Part shown: positions 471 through 13,917 of the stretch, one piece after another
Layout of the letters: each line of letters opens with the position of its first letter
Position numbering within the stretch: the stretch's first letter is position 1
Assembly (NCBI RefSeq): GCF_030013595.1
Contig: NZ_CP122768.1
Strand: one strand, 5' to 3'
DNA: 64,000 nt
Source of the DNA: Escherichia coli
GTDB taxonomy: Bacteria > Pseudomonadota > Gammaproteobacteria > Enterobacterales > Enterobacteriaceae
The notes under the pieces: generated by a model
Databases searched by the model: none
The model's input: only the letters and a program-made list of their open reading frames with translations
What the model was told of the DNA's origin: nothing
Program-made: the position numbers and the translations under genes

Positions 471-528
471 AAAAACGGCGGCAGAGCAGTCACGGAGTAA
501 AACTGATACCGCCAAACGTCACCAGAAA
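471..528 (-). ncRNA. dicF: DicF small regulatory RNA
   Basis: Reverse complement of 471..528 is UUUCUGGUGACGUUUGGCGGUAUCAGUUUUACUCCGUGACUGCUCUGCCGCCGUUUUU, matching remembered DicF; GC stem plus U-run at 3' end; located between early ORFs and dicB. Confidence 0.75.
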
Positions 529-1670: not shown

Positions 1671-2078
1671 TTATTTTATTGATTTATTTTTACGCGCTTT
1701 AAGCATTTCTTCGAAGAGTTTGTTGAAGTTTTCTACTCTTGCGCGCATTTCAGACAGCAAGGCTTCCTGCTCGGAAGATGGAAGAGCATCGAATAATTCG
1801 ATCAATTCTTTGTGGTTGGGAGTTAGCTCTGTTTCCACATGAAGTTCTTGTGCCGGCACTGGTGCCTTGTCTTCGTCACCAAACATTAGCCATGTAGGTG
1901 AGCACTTCAGAGCATCCGCTAAAGCAAACAATCGTTTTCCGACTGGCTGGGTTTCGTCTCTTTCCCATTGTGAAATTGTGACGTGAGCAACCCCAGCGAG
2001 GCGCGCAGCTTCTCGTTGTGTTAAGCGTAATTCTTTTCGTCGCGCCAGAACTCGCTGGCCTAGGGTTCTTGTATCCAT
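1671..2078 (-). CDS. dicA: Repressor DicA (HTH, XRE family, 135 aa)
   Basis: Full-length similarity to remembered DicA (..TISQWERDETQPVGKRLFALADALKCSPTWLMFGDEDK.. ..MRARVENFNKLFEEMLKARKN..); divergent from a Cro-like gene. Confidence 0.85.
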   Translation of the reverse strand: MDTRTLGQRVLARRKELRLTQREAARLAGVAHVTISQWERDETQPVGKRLFALADALKCSPTWLMFGDEDKAPVPAQELHVETELTPNHKELIELFDALPSSEQEALLSEMRARVENFNKLFEEMLKARKNKSIK

Positions 2079-2144: not shown

Positions 2145-2158
2145 AATAGGAGGCTTTG

Positions 2159-2386
2159 ATGCTTAAAGCTGACGCAATTACTTTTTTTGGCAGCAAAACA
2201 AAGCTTGCCAATGCCGCAGGAGTGAGACTGGCAAGTGTTGCTGCTTGGGGGATACTGGTTCCTGAAGGTCGCGCGATGCGTCTACAGGAGGCATCTGGCG
2301 GGGAGCTTCAGTATGATCCCAAAGTTTATGACGAATATCGTAAGACGAAGCGGGCGGGGCGGTTGAACAATGAAAATCACTCCTGA
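2159..2386 (+). CDS. dicC: Cro-like regulator DicC
   Basis: ATG 6 nt after AGGAGG; 75 aa (MLKADAITFFGSKTKLANAAGVRLASVAAWG...); divergent from dicA. Confidence 0.7.
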   Translation: MLKADAITFFGSKTKLANAAGVRLASVAAWGILVPEGRAMRLQEASGGELQYDPKVYDEYRKTKRAGRLNNENHS

Positions 2387-2891
2387 ACAGGCTCGTGAGG
2401 CTCTGGATGCCTGGATATGTCGACCAGGAATGACACAGGAGCAGGCGACGATATTAATCACTGAAGCATTCTGGGCTTTGAAAGAGCGCCCGAACATCGA
2501 TGTTCAGCGTGTCACAGATGAAGGTGGCGCGGTTGATCAGCGAGCGCTTGGCGTTAATCGAGTGAAGATATTCGAACGCTGGAAGGCTATCGACACTAGG
2601 GATAAGCGTGAAAAGTTCACGGCGCTAGTGCCTGCAATTATGGAGGCTATCCGGATTAATGATTTCAGGTTGTATCGTGAAATTAGTGACGGAAAAAGCA
2701 TCACGTACATGATCGCCGGGTTAAACAAAGAATATGGCGATGTGGTGGAGTCCGGACTGCTTTTTGCTGATCCTGCCGTAGTGGATCGTGAAACTGACGA
2801 ACTTATAGAAAAAGCAATTGCTTTCAAACTTGCGTATCGACTGCAATACCAACAAAAAGCTGGATGGAATTATGAGCCTTCTTTTTGCTGA
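2370..2891 (+). CDS. YdaT-like prophage regulatory protein (CII-position protein)
   Basis: 173-aa ORF directly after the cro-like gene, overlapping its stop; resembles the YdaT family from memory. Confidence 0.55.
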   Translation: MKITPEQAREALDAWICRPGMTQEQATILITEAFWALKERPNIDVQRVTDEGGAVDQRALGVNRVKIFERWKAIDTRDKREKFTALVPAIMEAIRINDFRLYREISDGKSITYMIAGLNKEYGDVVESGLLFADPAVVDRETDELIEKAIAFKLAYRLQYQQKAGWNYEPSFC

Positions 2892-3837
2892 ACGCCCACT
2901 GGTTATAAACACACAGCTTGCGATGAAGATTGGCTTAAATGAAGCCATTGTGTTGCAGCAGTTGCATTACTGGTTGAGAGATACCAATTCCGGCATGGAA
3001 TGTGATGGTGTTCGCTGGATTTACAACACAACGGAACAATGGCTGGAACAGTTCCCATTCTGGCCAGAGTCAACGTTAAAGCGCGCGTTTGCAAGTCTGA
3101 AAACGCTGGGGCTTTTGCGTTGTGAAAAGCTCAATAAATCAAAGCGCGATATGACCAATTTCTACACGATCAACTATGGGAGCGAGCTTTTAGATGGTGG
3201 CAAATTGAACGAATCCATCGGTTCAAAATGCGCCGCTCCATCAGGTCAAAATGACACGATGGAAGAGGTCAAAATGAAACGCTCCATTGGTTCAAAACGA
3301 CCCAATGTCATCGGGTCAAAATGGCCTGATGATCTTACAGAGAATACAACAGAGATTACTACAGAGAATAAAAACACTTTTCGTCCGGAAGCTTCGCAAC
3401 CGGACCCGCAGACCGCTGAACAGGATTTTTTAACCCGGAACCCCGACGCGGTTGTGTTTAGTGCGAAAAAACGCCAGTGGGGTAGCAGGGAGGATTTGGC
3501 GTGTGCGCAGTGGATTTGGGGGCGGATCGTGAACCTTTACGAACAGGCTGCCAGCGACGATGGAGAGATCATGCGACCAAAAGAGCCTAACTGGACAGCC
3601 TGGGCCAATGACGTGCGCACAATGCGGATGCTGGATGGCAGAAGCCACAGACAAATTTGCGAAATGTTTGGTCGGGTACAGCGAGATCCATTCTGGGTAA
3701 AAAACATCATGAGCCCGTCAAAACTCCGCGAAAAATGGGACGAACTGGTCATCCGCTTGGGACGTTCACCTGTACAGCGTTGTGTGAATCATATTTCTGA
3801 ACCGGATACAGAAATTCCGCCTGGTTTCAGGGGATAA
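2872..3837 (+). CDS. Replication initiation protein, lambda O-like
   Basis: Position after cro/cII-like genes; contains iteron-like DNA repeats internally (translated as repeated IGSK motifs), as in lambda O/ori; start at MSLLFAERP. Confidence 0.65.
   Translation: MSLLFAERPLVINTQLAMKIGLNEAIVLQQLHYWLRDTNSGMECDGVRWIYNTTEQWLEQFPFWPESTLKRAFASLKTLGLLRCEKLNKSKRDMTNFYTINYGSELLDGGKLNESIGSKCAAPSGQNDTMEEVKMKRSIGSKRPNVIGSKWPDDLTENTTEITTENKNTFRPEASQPDPQTAEQDFLTRNPDAVVFSAKKRQWGSREDLACAQWIWGRIVNLYEQAASDDGEIMRPKEPNWTAWANDVRTMRMLDGRSHRQICEMFGRVQRDPFWVKNIMSPSKLREKWDELVIRLGRSPVQRCVNHISEPDTEIPPGFRG
3219..3324 (+). repeat. Putative replication origin iterons (about five copies of GGTCAAAATG-like repeat)
   Basis: cGGTTCAAAATG 3219..3230, GGTCAAAATG 3244..3253 and 3267..3276, GGTTCAAAACG 3289..3299, GGGTCAAAATGG 3314..3324, inside the O-like gene. 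Confidence 0.6.
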
Positions 3838-3877
3838 GTGTTGATTTCAGGTCATGAGGTAATTTTAAGGAGGACTT

Positions 3878-4273
3878 GTGGCAAAAGTTTTTACACAGGA
3901 AGAGCGGGAAAAAATTAAAGAGCAGGTGGTCGAACTTGTGCGCCAGAGCGGTCGCGAGACATTACGACAGTTGGAAGCTAAAACAGGTGCGACAAGATAT
4001 CTGATGAGCATTCTTGCCAGAGAGCTGGTTGCCAGTGGTTATGTATACAACTCCGGCTACGGGTTATTCCCGTCTGAACAGGCACGAAAGGACTGGCAAA
4101 ATGCCCGCAAAAAACTCTCTAGGGCGAAGGTGAAGAAACCCGCTGTGGTTGATCCGGACCTTATCTGGTCACTACCTGATGGAGAAATACGTCGCTACGA
4201 CAGTCGTCTAAACATAATCTGTCGCGAGTGCCGGAAGAGCGAAGTTATGCAGCGCATATTGTCGTTTTATTAG
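3878..4273 (+). CDS. Hypothetical 131-aa protein at the position where a helicase loader (P/DnaC) would be expected
   Basis: GTG start 4 nt after TAAGGAGG; no Walker motif seen; function unknown. Confidence 0.5.
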   Translation: MAKVFTQEEREKIKEQVVELVRQSGRETLRQLEAKTGATRYLMSILARELVASGYVYNSGYGLFPSEQARKDWQNARKKLSRAKVKKPAVVDPDLIWSLPDGEIRRYDSRLNIICRECRKSEVMQRILSFY

Positions 4274-4615
4274 GGAAATGTTCGGTATCTATTTAAGTGA
4301 CGAGATTAAAGTGCATTAGTTAAGATGTAAATTGACATTTTCATGGCATAGGGTAGAGGTAGCGTGGTTGTCTGCTTTGTGCCATGAACTGATGTCGCTT
4401 GTGTGCGTGGCAATTAGTGTATAACGGATATCATCAGACTCCAGCAGTAGCATTGCTTGAGCATACTAACATATGAAATCTTTAGTTAACGTAAGATAAA
4501 TTAGATTTAGTTTTTTTGAGTATGAGCTCATAAATAATCAAAAAAACTTGATACGCCATATGACTTTGATTTATTTTGGGAAAATATAAAGGTAATGTAA
4601 TGTAAAGAGGAAAAT

Positions 4616-6103
4616 GTGGACATTAGAGACTGGCTACCAGAATTTCAAGTTTCAGCAGAAACAGATCGGGACTTACAGACCTATTTTTTTAAGCTACCGG
4701 CGATAAAGGATATTATTGAAAGTAGGGCTTGGTTGGTTCTTGGAAGAAAAGGTACTGGTAAAACAGCCATTTATGAACACCTTAGAAGAGGAAAACCAGC
4801 CAATCTCAACGGGTTTTACTCAGTATGTCTAAATTTTAGTGACTATCCATGGCCAGCCCATCAACTTTACAAGGATGCAATGGCTGGAGAACTTTCCGCT
4901 TATCAAAAAAGTTGGATGTATCTTTTTTATATTAAGGCATTATCTAAACTTATTGAAATAAAAAATGATGCTGGAGAGACTTTAAACAAAGATCTAACGT
5001 GGGCACATAATTATATCAAAACTATCTTTGGTAGTCCCGACCCAACTCTTAGGGAGGTTTTGTTTTCAAAAATAACCAGATTAAAAACCATAAAAGGGCC
5101 CAGTGCTGGTCTTAATGAAGTATCATTGGACGCAGGTGAAATTTCGTTAGAGGAAGTTGCTGAGAATGCTCAGCTAAAGCAAAAGCTAAGAGCTAATGCT
5201 TTCACATTGCTTACGTATTTTGAAAAAATTTTTAAAGATAACATTGGTAATGAAAAAATAATTATCGCCCTTGACCAATTAGACGAAAACTGGCTAGAGG
5301 GGCAAATTGAAGAATATAGTAAGGTTTTAATAAATCTGCTAAATGTCTGTAGAAACATAGCATCTGATGAACGCCTCAATGATAAATTAAAAGTCATTCC
5401 CTTCCTACGAACGGATATTTATCATTCTTTGAAATTCAATGATAAAAACAAATTATTGCAAGATAGTGCTATCATAATCTCATGGAATGAAAATAATCTA
5501 AACGATATGTATTATGAGAGGATAAAGAAATACAAACCTAATGATCTCATATTAGATGACGAAAAGGACAGATCTGGGAAAGTATTTGAGGTTTCATTCG
5601 TTAGGCAGGGGACTCCTCCATTTAAATATATATGTCGCCGTTCTTTCTTTAGGCCTAGGGATATTATTGTCTACTTCAACAAAATTAGGGCATGTCATAA
5701 AAATAATGTCTCAGGTCTTTACACTTCCAATGAGCTTTATGAAGCTGACCGTGAAGCATCTATAAGTGTGTACAATGAGGTGATTGATGAATGGTCCAAC
5801 CAATTCCCTGAAATTGAGAACTTACTAACTGTTCTTCAAACTATCCAAGTAGAAACATTCGATTTTAATGATTTCTCCGAGAAGTGCCGTAATGAATTTG
5901 CAGGTATTTCTGATGGGGTGATACGTCAATATATCAACTTCCTGTTTGATAACTCACTTATCGGACAAAAAAAACAAGGTAGATGGGAATACGTAAGTAG
6001 TTTGCCTAACTTAAAAATTAATCTACAAAATGAGTTTAGGACACATCATGCTTTAAAATACAGGTTGCATTTAATAGAAAGCAGACCGAGCCAAAATATT
6101 TAG
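4616..6103 (+). CDS. AAA+/STAND-like P-loop NTPase (495 aa), AT-rich moron; candidate defence gene
   Basis: GTG start 6 nt after AAGAGG; Walker A GRKGTGKT (4742..4765); Walker B-like IIIALDQLDE (5258..5287); AT-rich codon usage unlike flanking phage genes. Confidence 0.8.
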   Translation: MDIRDWLPEFQVSAETDRDLQTYFFKLPAIKDIIESRAWLVLGRKGTGKTAIYEHLRRGKPANLNGFYSVCLNFSDYPWPAHQLYKDAMAGELSAYQKSWMYLFYIKALSKLIEIKNDAGETLNKDLTWAHNYIKTIFGSPDPTLREVLFSKITRLKTIKGPSAGLNEVSLDAGEISLEEVAENAQLKQKLRANAFTLLTYFEKIFKDNIGNEKIIIALDQLDENWLEGQIEEYSKVLINLLNVCRNIASDERLNDKLKVIPFLRTDIYHSLKFNDKNKLLQDSAIIISWNENNLNDMYYERIKKYKPNDLILDDEKDRSGKVFEVSFVRQGTPPFKYICRRSFFRPRDIIVYFNKIRACHKNNVSGLYTSNELYEADREASISVYNEVIDEWSNQFPEIENLLTVLQTIQVETFDFNDFSEKCRNEFAGISDGVIRQYINFLFDNSLIGQKKQGRWEYVSSLPNLKINLQNEFRTHHALKYRLHLIESRPSQNI

Positions 6104-6266
6104 CTTACATCCATCTCCATTAAGAAATCTTGCTATTGTTCTTATGGATCGTCTTTCTGACTGATTTCATATTGGCGAGGTAAAGGTAGTTAAGTAGAAT
6201 GGCTGCGGGTGCTTGAGGCTATCTGCCTCGGGCATGAACACCAAAGGCAGATAGAGAAAAGCCCCA

Positions 6267-8141
6267 GTTAACATTACGCGTCCTGCAAGACGCTTAACAT
6301 TAATCTGAGGCCAATTTCATGCTAGACACATGTAGGTTAGCCTCTTACGTGCCGAAAGGCAAGGAGAAGCAGGCTAGTGTTAACACCAAGCTGTAATGTC
6401 CCCTTTGAACCATTCTAAAATGTCCCCAGACAATTCTCTGGGGGATTTTTCATGATCAAAGAGACTGTTACGATGAGTCATAAGGAACTCCACCGACTTC
6501 AGATTATTCAGGAGTCAATTAATCGACATATTACTCAGGAACAAGCTGCGGCACGCATTGGCATTTCTATTCGGCAGGTTAAACGTCTGGTGCAACGGTA
6601 TAGAAATGAAGGGCCTTCTGGTCTGGTTTCCCACCGACGTGGAAAGCGTCCTAATAATTCCTTTTCTACTGAATTCAGAGCAACAGTAATTTCACTCCTC
6701 AAAGGCCGTTACGCTGATTTTGGACCTACGTTTGCGTGCGAAAAATTGCGCGAGATACACGGTTTATCTTTATCCGTTGAAACTCTCAGAAAGTGGATGA
6801 TAGAAGAGGGGTTATGGCGTGAACGCCGTCGTAAAATTGCCCGTATATATCAACGCCGCATGCGACGACCATCTTACGGTGAACTGATCCAGATTGATGG
6901 CTCACCTCATGACTGGTTTGAAAATCGAGGCCCCAGATGTACACTGATCGTTTTCATTGATGATGCCACCAGTGCGTTGATGGCGTTGCGTTTTGTGCCT
7001 GCTGAAACAACCCGGGCTTACATGGAAACCCTCCGGGGTTACCTTAATGATCATGGCGTACCGCTCGCTCTCTACTCTGATAGACACAGTATATTCAGGG
7101 TAAATAACCCAGAGCGGGAAGGTGAGCTGACCCAGTTCACTCGTGCGATAAAGACACTGGGCATCGAGCCAATCCATGCCAACAGCCCGCAGGCAAAAGG
7201 GCGGGTAGAGCGCGCCAATCAGACACTACAGGACAGGCTGGTCAAAGAAATGCGGCTTCAGAATATCAGTGATATTGAAACAGCAAATGCATGGTTGCCG
7301 ACCTTTATTGAAGCCTATAACAACCGGTTCGCTACGTCGCCTCGTACTACTGATAATGCTCATCTTGATGAGCACCATTCTGAAGAGGAACTGGGTTATA
7401 TCTTCAGCCTACAGGCGAAGCGCGTTCTGTCTAAAAATCTCACTTTCCAGTACAAAAGCAGTGCGTTTCAGGTACGCAGTGAGGGCCGGGGATATCGACT
7501 TAGGCATTCGGTTGTTACTGTATGCGAGAACTTTGACGGTGAAATTAACGTTCTGTATGACGGGAAAGCGCTGGGCTGGGAAAAGTATGTTGATGGCCCG
7601 GAGCCTATACCACTGGATGATGAAAAGAGTGTCCATGAACGAGTGGATAATGCCCGTATTGATTTACGCTCAAAATACTATGTTAAACCTAAAGCTGACC
7701 ATCCCTGGCTTACGCGCCGAACGCAAAGTCATCAGCAAGTTAAGCCCCCGAAGTTACCTAAAAAGAAGCCTGATCCCGATAAAAAAGATTGAAACCAAGA
7801 TCGATTCGGTTGAGTGCATATCCATTCATAGGGTAGATTCTTAAGTCGCGTTTCTGGTGTTCATTTTCGGGTGGTTTGTTACTTGTTTTACCGGGGATAT
7901 GCCAGAAACGCGCTGAGTCAGTCTGGGCGGTGCGCGTAATGAGGCGTTATGGTAAATAGCCTATGCTAATGTCCGCTAAGAGCAAGAAGCGGAAGTTGGC
8001 AGTTTTGTGGACTGTCCCCACAAAAGTGACTACAGAAATAGTTGCAATTCATAATTGATCATGGGTTGTCAGTTAAACTCGTGGCGATTTAAATAGACTA
8101 ATTGGGAGTGCGTCCATTACTTATATCTTGTAATGTTAACT
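6267..8141. mobile_element. Insertion sequence (single-ORF DDE/rve transposase; IS481 or ISNCY-like); boundaries approximate
   Basis: 446-aa transposase ORF; 12-bp inverted match AGTTAACATTAC at 6267..6278 and 8130..8141 proposed as termini; no clear target-site duplication. Confidence 0.45.
6452..7792 (+). CDS. Transposase with N-terminal HTH and integrase-core (DDE) domain
   Basis: 446 aa; HTH (AARIGISIRQVKRLV) and rve-like core (..IQIDGSPHDWF.. ..LYSDRHSIF..); basic lysine-rich C-terminus. Confidence 0.85.
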   Translation: MIKETVTMSHKELHRLQIIQESINRHITQEQAAARIGISIRQVKRLVQRYRNEGPSGLVSHRRGKRPNNSFSTEFRATVISLLKGRYADFGPTFACEKLREIHGLSLSVETLRKWMIEEGLWRERRRKIARIYQRRMRRPSYGELIQIDGSPHDWFENRGPRCTLIVFIDDATSALMALRFVPAETTRAYMETLRGYLNDHGVPLALYSDRHSIFRVNNPEREGELTQFTRAIKTLGIEPIHANSPQAKGRVERANQTLQDRLVKEMRLQNISDIETANAWLPTFIEAYNNRFATSPRTTDNAHLDEHHSEEELGYIFSLQAKRVLSKNLTFQYKSSAFQVRSEGRGYRLRHSVVTVCENFDGEINVLYDGKALGWEKYVDGPEPIPLDDEKSVHERVDNARIDLRSKYYVKPKADHPWLTRRTQSHQQVKPPKLPKKKPDPDKKD

Positions 8142-8228
8142 ATCAGAAATGATACAAAGATAATATGTCTTTAAAGAAAAGGCTGATGGCGAAAAGTGGC
8201 CCGATGAGGGCCACAATACGGCTGTCAC

Positions 8229-8561
8229 TTAGACGTAAATATCAATGGTGCCAGCGGTATTTGTATCGTCTTTTTTCTCTTCTTTTTTATCAGGCTGAAC
8301 TGTCGCGTCTTCATTCTTTTTCTCTGCCTGCTGCCTTAACAACTGCTCCAGTTGAGCCCAGAGGCTTTCAATTTGCTTCTGTACCAATGCAGCCATTTCT
8401 TTTTTCTGCTGTGTCGTCATCCCCTCTTCCGATGAGATTTTCCCAAGCTTTTCAGTCAGCACCTGAATTTGTCTTGTGATTTTGGCTATTTCTGATGTTC
8501 CTTCCGGGGCGGAGTTGTTTGAAATAACGGTTGAGGTATTTCCCTGAATTGTGACAGACAT
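8229..8561 (-). CDS. flxA: FlxA (sigma-28-dependent prophage protein)
   Basis: 110-aa product MSVTIQGNTSTVISNNSAPEGTSEIAKITRQIQVLTEKL... matches remembered FlxA. Confidence 0.8.
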   Translation of the reverse strand: MSVTIQGNTSTVISNNSAPEGTSEIAKITRQIQVLTEKLGKISSEEGMTTQQKKEMAALVQKQIESLWAQLEQLLRQQAEKKNEDATVQPDKKEEKKDDTNTAGTIDIYV

Positions 8562-8584
8562 AGATTTCTCCTTTTAAAAAAGCA

Positions 8585-8611
8585 CTATCGGCATGCACAA
8601 AAAAATCTTTA
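8585..8611 (-). promoter_or_regulatory. Sigma-28 (FliA) promoter of flxA
   Basis: Reverse strand TAAAGATT (8604..8611), 11-nt spacer, GCCGATAG (8585..8592), close to consensus TAAAGTTT-N11-GCCGATAA, just upstream of flxA. Confidence 0.6.
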
Positions 8612-8763
8612 ATCGTATTTCTTGTGTCATTAATTGTTTGATGTTCAGATTGTTTTCCTCGCGGGCTGGCGCGCCTCAGAAAGTAAAGCTTGTTGACAGG
8701 GGTAAACGTTCGGCAATAATTTTCTGCCGCATGCGGGTGTTGCATAAAACGTGTTACGTTCCT

Positions 8764-9069
8764 TTATCGACAGGTCAGGTCACCGCTCACCCGCCGACGA
8801 GAAAGCAACACTGACATGCTAAAGCAAAAAATAGATGAATAAGTTGAGTTGTGCATATGTAGCCTGACCGTCACAAAGTATATGGTGTCTGTACCAGTAA
8901 GATGATGGCCGGACTCTTTAAAAACGAGCTGACCTGCACAATACAGGATGGACTTAGCAATGGCTGCTCCTGGCAGAAAGCGGACAGTGATCACCGTTCT
9001 TACGACTACTTTCTGACTTCCTTCGTGACTTGCCCTAAGCATGTTGTAGTGCGATACTTGTAATGACAT
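8764..9069 (-). CDS. YdfV-like hypothetical ORF (101 aa), doubtful
   Basis: ORF of the length remembered for ydfV between flxA and relB; low-complexity product, overlaps relB operator. Confidence 0.25.
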   Translation of the reverse strand: MSLQVSHYNMLRASHEGSQKVVVRTVITVRFLPGAAIAKSILYCAGQLVFKESGHHLTGTDTIYFVTVRLHMHNSTYSSIFCFSMSVLLSRRRVSGDLTCR

Positions 9070-9082
9070 TTGTAATTACAAG
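9057..9082. promoter_or_regulatory. relBE operator/promoter palindrome (relO)
   Basis: CTTGTAATGACATTTGTAATTACAAG, inverted repeat just upstream of relB. Confidence 0.6.
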
Positions 9083-9093
9083 AGGTGTAAGAC

Positions 9094-9333
9094 ATGGGTA
9101 GCATTAACCTGCGTATTGACGATGAACTTAAAGCGCGTTCTTACGCCGCGCTTGAAAAAATGGGTGTAACTCCTTCTGAAGCGCTTCGTCTCATGCTCGA
9201 GTATATCGCTGACAATGAACGCTTGCCGTTCAAACAGACACTCCTGAGTGATGAAGATGCTGAACTTGTGGAGATAGTGAAAGAACGGCTTCGTAATCCT
9301 AAGCCAGTACGTGTGACGCTGGATGAACTCTGA
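9094..9333 (+). CDS. relB: Antitoxin RelB
   Basis: 79 aa MGSINLRIDDELKARSYAALEKMGVTPSEALRLMLEYIADNERLPF... matches RelB. Confidence 0.9.
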   Translation: MGSINLRIDDELKARSYAALEKMGVTPSEALRLMLEYIADNERLPFKQTLLSDEDAELVEIVKERLRNPKPVRVTLDEL

Positions 9334-9620
9334 TGGCGTATTTTCTGGATTTTGACGAGCGGGCACTAAAGGAATGGCGAAAGCTGGGCTCGACGGTACG
9401 TGAACAGTTGAAAAAGAAGCTGGTTGAAGTAATTGAGTCACCCCGGATTGAAGCAAACAAGCTCCGTGGTATGCCTGATTGTTACAAGATTAAGCTCCGG
9501 TCTTCAGGCTATCGCCTTGTATACCAGGTTATAGACGAGAAAGTTGTCGTTTTCGTGATTTCTGTTGGGAAAAGAGAACGCTCGGAAGTATATAGCGAGG
9601 CGGTCAAACGCATTCTCTGA
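9333..9620 (+). CDS. relE: mRNA interferase toxin RelE
   Basis: 95 aa MAYFLDFDERALKEWRKLGSTVREQLKKKL... matches RelE; start overlaps relB stop. Confidence 0.9.
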   Translation: MAYFLDFDERALKEWRKLGSTVREQLKKKLVEVIESPRIEANKLRGMPDCYKIKLRSSGYRLVYQVIDEKVVVFVISVGKRERSEVYSEAVKRIL

Positions 9621-9691
9621 ACCAAAGCATGACATCTCTGTTTCGCACCGAAGGTGACACTTCTGCTTTGCGTTGACAGGAGAAGCAGGCT

Positions 9692-9847
9692 ATGAAGCAG
9701 CAAAAGGCGATGTTAATCGCCCTGATCGTCATCTGTTTAACCGTCATAGTGACGGCACTGGTAACGAGGAAAGACCTCTGCGAGGTACGAATCCGAACCG
9801 GCCAGACGGAGGTCGCTGTCTTCACAGCTTACGAACCTGAGGAGTAA
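9692..9847 (+). CDS. hokD: Hok-family type I toxin HokD (RelF), 51 aa
   Basis: Translation MKQQKAMLIALIVICLTVIVTALVTRKDLCEVRIRTGQTEVAVFTAYEPEE; below ORF-track size cut-off, found by reading. Confidence 0.8.
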   Translation: MKQQKAMLIALIVICLTVIVTALVTRKDLCEVRIRTGQTEVAVFTAYEPEE

Positions 9848-9915
9848 GAGACCCGGCGAGGGAGAAATCCCTCGCCACCTCTGATGTGTCAGGCATCCTC
9901 AACGCACCCGCACTT

Positions 9916-9945
9916 AACCCGCTTCGGCGGGTTTTTGTTTTTATT
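9916..9945 (+). terminator. Rho-independent terminator after relBE-hokD
   Basis: AACCCGC-TTCG-GCGGGTT hairpin followed by a T-run. Confidence 0.6.
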
Positions 9946-10063
9946 TTCAACGCGTTTGAAGTTCTGGACGGTGCCGGAATAGAATCAAAAATACTTAAGT
10001 AGCGCGCAGGGATAAGAGGGATGGTCCCTTAAAGGGGAGAGCTAATTATCCGGAAGGATTCTG

Positions 10064-10315
10064 ATGATGAACATCGAAGAACTGCGTAAAATTTTTTGTG
10101 AAGATGGCCTCTATGCTGTGTGCGTTGAAAATGGAAATCTTGTTAGTCATTACCGCATTATGTGTTTGCGAAAGAATGGGGCTGCGTTAATTAATTTTGT
10201 GGATGGTCGAGTGACAGACAGATTTATCTTGCGCGAAGGTGAGTTTGTCACTTCATTACAGGCACTGAAAGAGATCGGAATAAAAGCAGGCTTTTCAGCT
10301 TTTGCAGAAGAATAA
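10064..10315 (+). CDS. rem: Rem-like small prophage protein (83 aa)
   Basis: 83-aa ORF MMNIEELRKIFCEDGLYAVCVENG... at the position of rem between hokD and ydfU. Confidence 0.55.
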   Translation: MMNIEELRKIFCEDGLYAVCVENGNLVSHYRIMCLRKNGAALINFVDGRVTDRFILREGEFVTSLQALKEIGIKAGFSAFAEE

Positions 10316-13111: not shown

Positions 13112-13411
13112 AAAAATTCCTTAATACTGATAACTTGGCGCACTATACACACGTTCCTGAAGAAAGCTATAGTTTTTTGATGGGGTTGAAGATGGCTGGA
13201 TGTCTAAAATAAACATTGCTTCATATGTTCAACTATGCGTTAATGATTGCGTCGGTTTGAAGAACAGACGATATACGAAGTAGTTTACTAAAGCAGTTCT
13301 CATTTCAGGTGTTATTCACTTATTCCTTCTTTGAGTCTCTCCAATTAAGTACGAAGTCGTTTCTGTTATGCAAACCATTTATGCCGAAAGGCTCAAGTTA
13401 AGGAATGTAGA

Positions 13412-13627
13412 ATGTCAAATAAAATGACTGGTTTAGTAAAATGGTTTAACGCTGATAAAGGTTTCGGCTTTATTTCTCCTGTTGATGGTAGTAAAGATGT
13501 GTTTGTGCATTTTTCTGCGATTCAGAATGATAATTATCGAACCTTATTTGAAGGTCAAAAGGTTACCTTCTCTATAGAGAGTGGTGCTAAAGGTCCTGCA
13601 GCAGCAAATGTCATCATTACTGATTAA
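13412..13627 (+). CDS. cspB: Cold shock protein CspB
   Basis: 71 aa [38 protein letters not shown]..., RNP motifs. Confidence 0.9.
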
Positions 13628-13917
13628 AATTCATCGCTCGTCTGTATACGATAACGAAGAAGGCTGATGCCTGAGTAGAGATACGGACAGAGTAGTGAAT
13701 ATTGGATTTCTTTAATAAAAATTAAGGAGGTCCAATACATGAAACAATGGTCAGCATATTTGGCAAAATCTTAATCAGGAAAAGTATGCTAACCATTGTG
13801 GTGAAGTGCAGGTTTGCTGCATGAATAGTTTTACAGCAGAAGCTAACTGCTGGCATGGCAAAACAAAGTGCGTAAGTGGATGACTCCCACAAAAAGCACC
13901 ACAATCTCAAACCCGCT

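Follow-up and report, generated by a model that had tools for sequence, protein, structure and literature searches.

Introduction

The old/tin hotspot of phage P2 and other defence hotspots of prophages and satellites are places of variable anti-phage content (Rousset et al. 2022, PMC9122126). Here we describe a locus of comparable build in a window of 64,000 nucleotides from Escherichia coli (RefSeq assembly GCF_030013595.1, contig NZ_CP122768.1; the window is the whole stretch of DNA that was analysed, and positions are counted from its first letter), which represents a lambdoid prophage of the Qin type and in which a single gene for a P-loop ATPase of the Sll1717 family occupies a slot between a DUF977 gene and the hok/sok region. 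As in the old/tin hotspot, the slot lies between conserved phage genes, and what it holds differs among strains and includes anti-phage genes; a Serratia homologue of the ATPase with 81% identity sits in the old/tin hotspot itself, between P2 gpA and the portal gene; unlike it, the present slot belongs to lambdoid prophages of the Qin and Rac types and extends from DUF977 to hok/sok. In the accessible portion of the tables of PMC9122126 the RefSeq accession of the ATPase does not appear, and no description of a DUF977-hok/sok slot was found in the accessible literature.

With respect to its product, the gene invites comparison with the antiviral STAND NTPases Avs and bNACHT and with NTP-dependent conflict systems (PMC7159879), from which the ATPase differs in lacking both an N-terminal effector and a C-terminal repeat sensor. 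Compared with the ORC/Cdc6 initiators and the 'archaeal ATPase' proteins (PDB 2fna, 2qen, 1fnn, 2qby), the identity is 10-16%; the ATPase further departs from ORC/Cdc6 by a helical insertion of 115 residues in its core, and it is mobile cargo, untied to an origin or to replisome genes. The defence ATPases BrxC of BREX and RdrA of RADAR lie in the same structural neighbourhood; both, however, belong to multi-gene systems, whereas the ATPase described here has no conserved partner.

A last likeness is to the morons of lambda-type phages, a concept of Juhala and Hendrix. Like a moron, the ATPase gene is one additional gene that brings an upstream region of its own and has an atypical composition, set among conserved phage genes and beside a Ren-like gene (in lambda, ren is located just after P). 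It differs in that no terminator was found between the ATPase gene and hok, nor any intrinsic terminator 3' of the gene, and in that its expression in the lysogen is only predicted, from the sequence.

An earlier reading made from the letters of the DNA (the sequence-only reading) had taken positions 4274-6451 for a separately acquired island of low G+C content, bounded by phage replication genes and an insertion sequence (IS). We find that the low-G+C block is a one-gene accessory cassette of the 'moron' type, rare and exchangeable, in a variable slot of Qin/Rac-type prophages, and that the ATPase lies among defence genes and in hotspots documented for defence. We consider it somewhat better than an even bet, with a probability of roughly 0.55, that the gene acts against phages or other mobile elements, probably as a single-gene defence.

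Composition and extent of the cassette

The low G+C content and the homopolymeric A/T runs that had been claimed for the gene and the 340 bp upstream of it are both borne out by computation. The upstream part (4274-4615) comes to 33.6% G+C and the open reading frame (ORF, 4616-6103) to 35.1%, against 48.3% in the left neighbours (2156-4273) and 47.4% in the transposase gene, and A/T runs of at least six are three times denser inside the island than outside (4.9 versus 1.6 per kb). In a sliding-window comparison the block 4274-6103 differs from its neighbours, having 34.8% G+C versus 48.7% for the whole window, and belongs to the lowest 0.18% of the equal-sized (1830-bp) windows; the G+C content at third codon positions (GC3) of the ATPase ORF is 0.31, compared with 0.44-0.52 for neighbouring genes. 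Such a compositional island is in itself ordinary, as expected of prophage cargo. The interval as drawn, 4274-6451 (36.4% G+C), nevertheless mixes three parts: a conserved flank (4274-4388), the cassette (4389-6127) and a remainder (6128-6451) made up of the conserved hok/sok region, at 46-49% G+C, and the first bases of an unrelated insertion. The low-G+C block stops at about 6206, and 6207-6376 has 49.4% G+C.

Alignment with related prophages that carry other cargo defined the edges. In blastn comparisons the left homology ends at 4384-4388 (loci L003, L004 and L006), or at 4283 in one lineage, and picks up again at 6128 to continue to 6376, which corrects the acquired segment to 4389-6127 (plus strand, 1,739 bp, 34.6% G+C), an exchangeable cassette that holds one gene and its own upstream region. 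The 115 bp behind the DUF977 gene (4274-4388, plus strand, 38.3% G+C) are common to prophages with different cargo: an alignment of eight loci keeps this flank whatever cargo comes next, with TTGAC conserved in seven of the eight, and similarity fades a few bases past a short inverted repeat within it, just 5' of the homology break. This repeat (TGGCATA / TGTGCCA at 4344-4350 / 4378-4384, with the consensus TGGCA(C/T)A ... TGTGCCA across loci) could be a regulatory or recombination-related site. Because the flank is conserved beside different cargo it does not belong to the acquired segment, in which the sequence-only reading had included it together with its TTGACA.

For the segment so corrected, the proposal of a separate horizontal acquisition is well supported. 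Of 5,426 E. coli genomes, no more than 40 contain the full-length cassette; between the same flanks it is missing from loci L003 and L004, and unrelated cargo is found there; and the ORF, without these flanks, turns up by itself in Vibrio and in P2-like prophages of Klebsiella and Serratia, with a nucleotide identity of 69-79%. Nor do unrelated phage lineages share the segment as an unbroken stretch of ancestral DNA; nucleotide homology between contexts begins no more than a few bases from the start codon, and the ORF is all that they have in common. Within E. coli, the interval 4274-6451 is 100% identical in two pig isolates whose flanks agree at 99.8-99.9%, and about 38 further chromosomes match as far as 6376 with an identity of 99.6-99.8%.

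Cargo is exchanged between conserved flanks, and the junctions are heterogeneous. The conserved right flank starts (6128-6206, plus strand) with the final 11 codons of an ORF for a hydrophobic peptide of 29 aa, followed by a hok promoter-like site (6172-6200, plus strand; TTGGCG-17-TAGAAT, a consensus match); right junctions vary by cargo type, and in the window the junction cuts inside the hydrophobic ORF, for which reason only 11 of its 29 codons are left. A site-specific recombination origin of the slot was considered and is not favoured, in that the left junction adjoins the conserved short inverted repeat, yet the right junctions differ among cargo types. Their heterogeneity therefore favours ordinary recombination between mosaic flanks, and in the scheme that we propose cargo would be exchanged by recombination between related prophages and not by way of the neighbouring IS.

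As a separate observation, the 29-codon ORF (VLVLKCALAITAVMAIYCLAIVLMDRLSD), which has an AGGAGG Shine-Dalgarno sequence and lies just 5' of the hok promoter, is intact in four other loci (an intact copy occupies 7772-7861 of L003, and the remnant in the window 6128-6163); it may encode an unannotated small membrane peptide or toxin.

Alternative occupants of the slot

The left anchor of the slot is the DUF977 gene (3878-4273, plus strand; Pfam DUF977 at 2.9e-26, and phrog_142 at 1.2e-42, named 'Ren-like exclusion protein' in PHROG), with which the conserved early/replication block ends. The right anchor is the hok mRNA leader with the sok antisense region (6207-6376, plus strand; Rfam RF01794, 111.2 bits against a gathering score of 59, E 4.4e-25), which lies outside the low-G+C island.

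A survey of 11 E. coli loci, sampled by anchoring on the DUF977 gene, revealed at least 8 different contents between that gene and hok or its replacement. Apart from the ATPase, the slot can be occupied by a 340-aa protein without a family match (L003); by a RelA/SpoT-domain protein (L004, 6314-7339) that matches the PADLOC candidate PDC-S33 at 5.3e-119; by a SMEK-domain protein (L016, 4554-5453, by annotation) together with a methyltransferase; by QueH alone or by QueH with a KwaB-like protein (L017, 5971-6993, by annotation); by an orphan methyltransferase (MTase_II/orphan MTase model, 4.5e-45); by two ORFs without a family match (L020); or by a 314-aa protein without a family match followed by PD-T7-1 (L006, PD-T7-1 at 8759-10108, 8.3e-157), the PD-T7-1 occupant being seen in loci that lack hokD. 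The sampled alternative cargo is AT-rich as well, at 34-38% G+C. This is the arrangement described for prophage defence hotspots: conserved phage genes flank a content that varies among strains, and known or candidate defence genes (PD-T7-1, PDC-S33 and the MTase_II/orphan methyltransferase) are among the alternative occupants. The occupants without a family match, that is, the 340-aa protein of L003, the 314-aa protein of L006 and the ORFs of L020, are candidate defence genes.

The slot is found behind both Qin-like and Rac-like immunity/replication modules, and it lies in some of the commonest prophages of E. coli, DUF977-type modules being present in 4,166 of 5,426 complete genomes. Even a small sample has already brought to light PD-T7-1, a toxSAS-like RelA/SpoT protein, proteins with KwaB-like and SMEK domains, and several that are wholly unknown; an uncatalogued hotspot of this kind, if real, could be mined for more defence systems.

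The ATPase family and its fold

The gene (4616-6103, plus strand) encodes 495 aa from a GTG start that follows AGAGGA, the same start as in RefSeq. Its description as an NTPase gene in the sequence-only reading agrees with the profile match: the protein belongs to NCBIfam NF047389, 'P-loop ATPase, Sll1717 family', which is also its RefSeq name, with 250.4 bits (E 3.8e-74) against a cutoff of 75 bits, residues 13-484 aligning with profile positions 5-454 of 454. Beyond this family, sequence comparison yields little. The protein matches a PHROG of unknown function; no Pfam domain was detected in it, STAND families included; a search of PDB sequences returned a chance armadillo match only (E 0.15); tblastn against 50,697 GenBank phage records found one weak match, in a Lactococcus phage, at 24% identity; and a fold search of BFVD gave generic AAA+ proteins only. 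Relatives of the protein weakly match Pfam ORC-CDC6-like, AAA_16 and nSTAND families, below threshold for STAND, and with matches to PF24389 that reach 1.3e-7 at best.

An alignment of 88 sequences, with identities down to 21%, reveals a strongly conserved nucleotide-binding site. Walker A residues G43, K45, G46, G48 and K49, the Walker B residue D220, and R265, R302, P347 and R348 are invariant, D223 is conserved in at least 90% of the sequences, and H477 is nearly invariant. The protein thus carries the STAND forms of both motifs, GxxxxGK[ST] for Walker A and hhhhD with a second acidic residue for Walker B. In the alignment and the structural model, R265, P347/R348 and H477 fall at the secondary-structure positions expected for STAND residues, and we infer that R265 may be the STAND sensor-1 arginine, P347 the GxP proline and H477 an MHD-like histidine.

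The AlphaFold model (predicted local distance difference test, pLDDT, 89; predicted template modelling score, pTM, 0.87) is confident; its alpha/beta ATPase core, which bears a long helical insertion (94-210) with a disordered loop (159-177), is followed by a helical lid and, at the C terminus, by a winged helix. This predicted succession of AAA+ core, lid and C-terminal winged helix is that of the ORC/Cdc6 clade, and chains of ORC4, Orc1 and Cdc6 head the Foldseek matches in the PDB, with full-length alignment. The sequence-family and replication-linkage features of that clade are missing, the query having no Pfam match and being variable cargo in many contexts. Likewise, neither Pfam nor the model reveals an effector or a sensor repeat domain, the protein ending after the winged helix, and the tripartite STAND architecture of effector, NOD and large sensor is not that of this 495-aa protein. 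A dN/dS of about 0.07 among Enterobacterales and the lack of variation in the nucleotide-binding motifs show strong purifying selection; the gene is intact and horizontally mobile by itself.

Homologues in other contexts

The Sll1717 family is large, with 1,373 clusters (50% identity) at E < 1e-3, and relatives are encoded on 40 viral contigs of IMG/VR. Close homologues share 62-89% identity across several phyla, with an unusually well conserved clade at 62-72% identity to the E. coli protein in Vibrio, Nitrosomonas, Arcobacteraceae, Tenacibaculum, Flavobacterium, Bdellovibrionaceae and a metagenome-assembled genome of Patescibacteria. Every copy has 28-35% G+C and a GC3 of 0.19-0.32, whereas the flanks range from 27 to 54% G+C, and synonymous sites are saturated in comparison with the Klebsiella, Serratia and Vibrio copies. 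That the copies are AT-rich despite this saturation and despite surroundings of up to 54% implies that AT-richness is a lasting trait of the gene and not only a mark of recent arrival.

Many of the contexts are those of mobile or defensive DNA. In addition to the Serratia copy in the old/tin hotspot, a Klebsiella homologue (89%) lies in a slot of the tail region of a P2-like prophage, a Proteus homologue (88%) adjoins a prophage integrase, and a Vibrio cholerae homologue (71%) stands beside a filamentous prophage; a Providencia homologue (89%) is found in the order integrase, ATPase, HsdR, GmrSD, and that of Tenacibaculum (63%) shares an island with genes for GmrSD, a reverse transcriptase and a PIF1 helicase. 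The Enterobacter homologue (L014) shares a small islet with the toxin-antitoxin pair TacA/GNAT, beside methionine-salvage genes. A minority of the 150 immediate neighbours are defence genes, namely type I and III restriction-modification, AbiEii, Uzume (UzuA), MADS, Kiwa (KwaA) and Dsr1. When a conserved operon partner was sought in about 82 loci, no neighbour family occurred in more than 4 of them, and the lack of a recurring neighbour indicates that the ATPase works alone or with core host factors.

In distant, longer relatives (P0164, P0170, P0249 and P0253) the fusion partner is a GT4-conflict glycosyltransferase, a pair of EAD7 domains or, at the N terminus, a cold-shock domain. EAD7 has been assigned to effector recruitment in NTP-dependent conflict systems (Kaur et al. 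2020, PMC7159879), and these fusions link the family to such systems.

Proposed function of the ATPase

In the mechanism that we propose, the lysogen would express the ATPase from the AT-rich upstream region, with 4548-4577 as the candidate promoter, and the protein would serve as a single-gene sentinel against phage or mobile elements. The subsequent steps are put forward with low confidence: a phage-derived trigger might free an ADP-locked monomer, the ATP-bound protein might oligomerise, its winged helix and helical insertion might bind DNA or a host or phage factor, and the outcome might be a block of phage replication or abortive infection. H-NS, judging by composition, may dampen the expression of the gene. 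The wider, joint claim that we are dealing with an effectorless single-gene anti-phage system, a minimal STAND/ORC-like switch that has no more than a winged helix and a helical insertion, and at the same time with an uncatalogued DUF977-hok/sok defence hotspot is more tentative, and we would not call it probable; according to it, the protein would block infection by assembling, with the help of ATP, on the DNA of phage or host, or by capturing a replication factor. In either event, the finding singles out a strongly conserved and widely transferred ATPase family that has a name and no function, and if the ATPase does defend against phage, it would be a switch of the STAND/ORC type that acts without a dedicated effector.

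Several points weigh against a defensive role. No report on the Sll1717 family, or on a role of it in phage resistance, was found in the accessible literature, and no validated model of PADLOC-DB v2.0.0 matched the protein, the only hit being a partial one to the candidate PDC-M28C (4.1e-5, residues 212-304). Some of the contexts are ordinary chromosome, as in the case of Enterobacter L014, and the raw share of defence genes among the neighbours is suggestive only. The region upstream of the ORF holds 8 promoter-like sites where 7.3 are expected from shuffles, which is no evidence of function; and the blocking or killing step is speculative because the protein has no recognisable effector domain. 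Lastly, an IS3-family insertion splits the ATPase gene in strains STEC313 and STEC367, from which it follows that the gene is dispensable and can be lost.

Among the competing explanations, the one that holds up best takes the gene for cargo without a defensive role, that is, for a MalT-like, STAND-type DNA-binding regulator or for a purely selfish or addictive gene kept by horizontal transfer. We judge it unlikely, if by no means negligible. A regulator would be expected to keep its target or a neighbour, and none is conserved in the roughly 82 loci; moreover, the gene recurs in slots that carry defence genes, and its relatives are fused to effector-associated domains.

We give far less credit to the idea that the ATPase is a replication protein of the prophage, an ORC/Cdc6- or DnaC-like initiator or helicase loader that works with the O-like initiator and whose composition is incidental. 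Its position is suggestive, directly after the O-like initiator (2818-3837; phrog_391, 5e-92) and DUF977, as are the best structural matches, which include Cdc6/ORC, DnaA, TnsC and MuB, and the fact that a DnaC-like 'ATP-binding protein' is encoded in a Rac-type relative, whereas the Qin-type module has no recognisable helicase loader. Unrelated genes, however, stand in its stead in prophages whose O-like and DUF977 genes are near-identical, and since prophages with the same replication genes do without the ATPase, a replication role is improbable. Homologues are also found away from replication genes, in cargo slots of P2, in restriction islands and in plain chromosome, and the ATPase gene is AT-rich whereas the replication genes are not.

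The neighbouring insertion

The sequence-only reading went astray in letting an IS bound the island on the right. On that side the island borders on the hok/sok leader; the IS begins only at 6377, another 250 bp along, as part of an independent insertion of 3.3 kb. This insertion (6377-9677, plus strand, 3,301 bp) contains an ISNCY/IS1202-like transposase gene (6452-7792; NF033594 at 464 bits), ydfW, flxA, ydfV, relB and relE, and sits exactly between the hok/sok leader and the ribosome-binding site of hokD (coding sequence 9692-9847). The two ends are imperfect inverted copies of each other, agreeing at 21 of 28 positions, and a perfect 15-bp direct repeat, AGGAGAAGCAGGCTA, flanks the insertion at 6362-6376 and 9678-9692, leaving the ATPase gene outside. 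The insertion is absent from locus L001 and present in about 759 E. coli genomes, nearly all of which lack the ATPase. Judged by these features it looks like a transposon-like element carrying relBE.

These observations bear on the notion that the adjacent IS delivered the island, as a composite transposon or as an IS-associated passenger. The transposase gene does begin as close as 350 bp past the ATPase ORF, but the insertion's own direct repeats and its occurrence in some 759 genomes, nearly all ATPase-free, imply that it is independent and did not bring the island. Furthermore, 38 of the 40 full-length carriers have no IS at the junction and, among the matches listed, all stop at 6376; in NRG857C and, where listed, in the other carriers free of the IS junction, the ATPase gene, the hok leader and hokD are contiguous. 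The left edge of the cassette shows neither an IS nor a repeat, and IS ends with a target-site duplication do not surround the island, as they would in a composite transposon. Delivery by the IS is hence highly improbable. Scarcely any more credible is the view that the low G+C content is intrinsic and ancestral to this lambdoid region, which can point to other low-G+C patches inside the prophage and to the AT-richness of the alternative cargo, but is contradicted by presence and absence between identical flanks and by the same ORF in unrelated phage types and phyla.

K-12, which does not have the ATPase gene, matches the region of the insertion from window position 7608 onward only, and its Qin order (intK/ydfW-flxA-relBE-leaderless hokD) looks like that of a deletion derivative.

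Upstream region and H-NS

The TTGACA at 4332-4337 is present as the sequence-only reading had stated, and no acceptable -10 hexamer lies 16-18 nt downstream of it, also in agreement with that reading. The best promoter-like site 5' of the ORF occupies 4548-4577 (plus strand; TTGATA, 18 nt, TATTTT; a consensus match only) and is preceded by an AT-rich inverted repeat (4509-4523 / 4534-4548, plus strand). A small partner gene sought in 4389-4640 was not found, the interval holding short unconserved ORFs only, and a search for structured RNA in the same interval gave a fold energy no better than that of shuffles (z = -0.9).

In E. coli, H-NS silences AT-rich foreign DNA, and the cassette has the high AT content of H-NS-silenced DNA, with 34.6% G+C versus 48.7% for the window. 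A proxy for the H-NS nucleation motif (TCGATAAATT, at most 2 mismatches) has 5 sites in the cassette; across the window it occurs 83 times versus 70 expected, which is not significant, and the scan adds nothing to what AT-richness predicts. Binding and silencing of the cassette by H-NS are plausible in view of its 31-35% G+C and A/T tracts alone.

Other features of the window

The early region of the prophage encodes the DicF RNA (476-527, minus strand; 72.5 bits), beside which, within the span 269-527 of the minus strand, there is a sub-threshold STnc100-like match, and a cI-like repressor (1671-2078, minus strand), after which come cro and a YdaT-family gene. On the other side, 3' of the interval 4274-6451, the transposase gene is followed by flxA, relBE, hokD, rem, a DUF968 gene and the late genes; directly 3' of hokD there is a weak isrK-like match (9856-9937) of 25.6 bits, under the gathering score. 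Further patches of low G+C content (33-40%) occur in the window at 12.5-13.7, 15.5-17.7, 42.2-43.5 and 56-57 kb, the first of which coincides in part with a match to the cspA-type thermoregulator (13251-13643, 159 bits), located in the prophage's cspB/cspF region.

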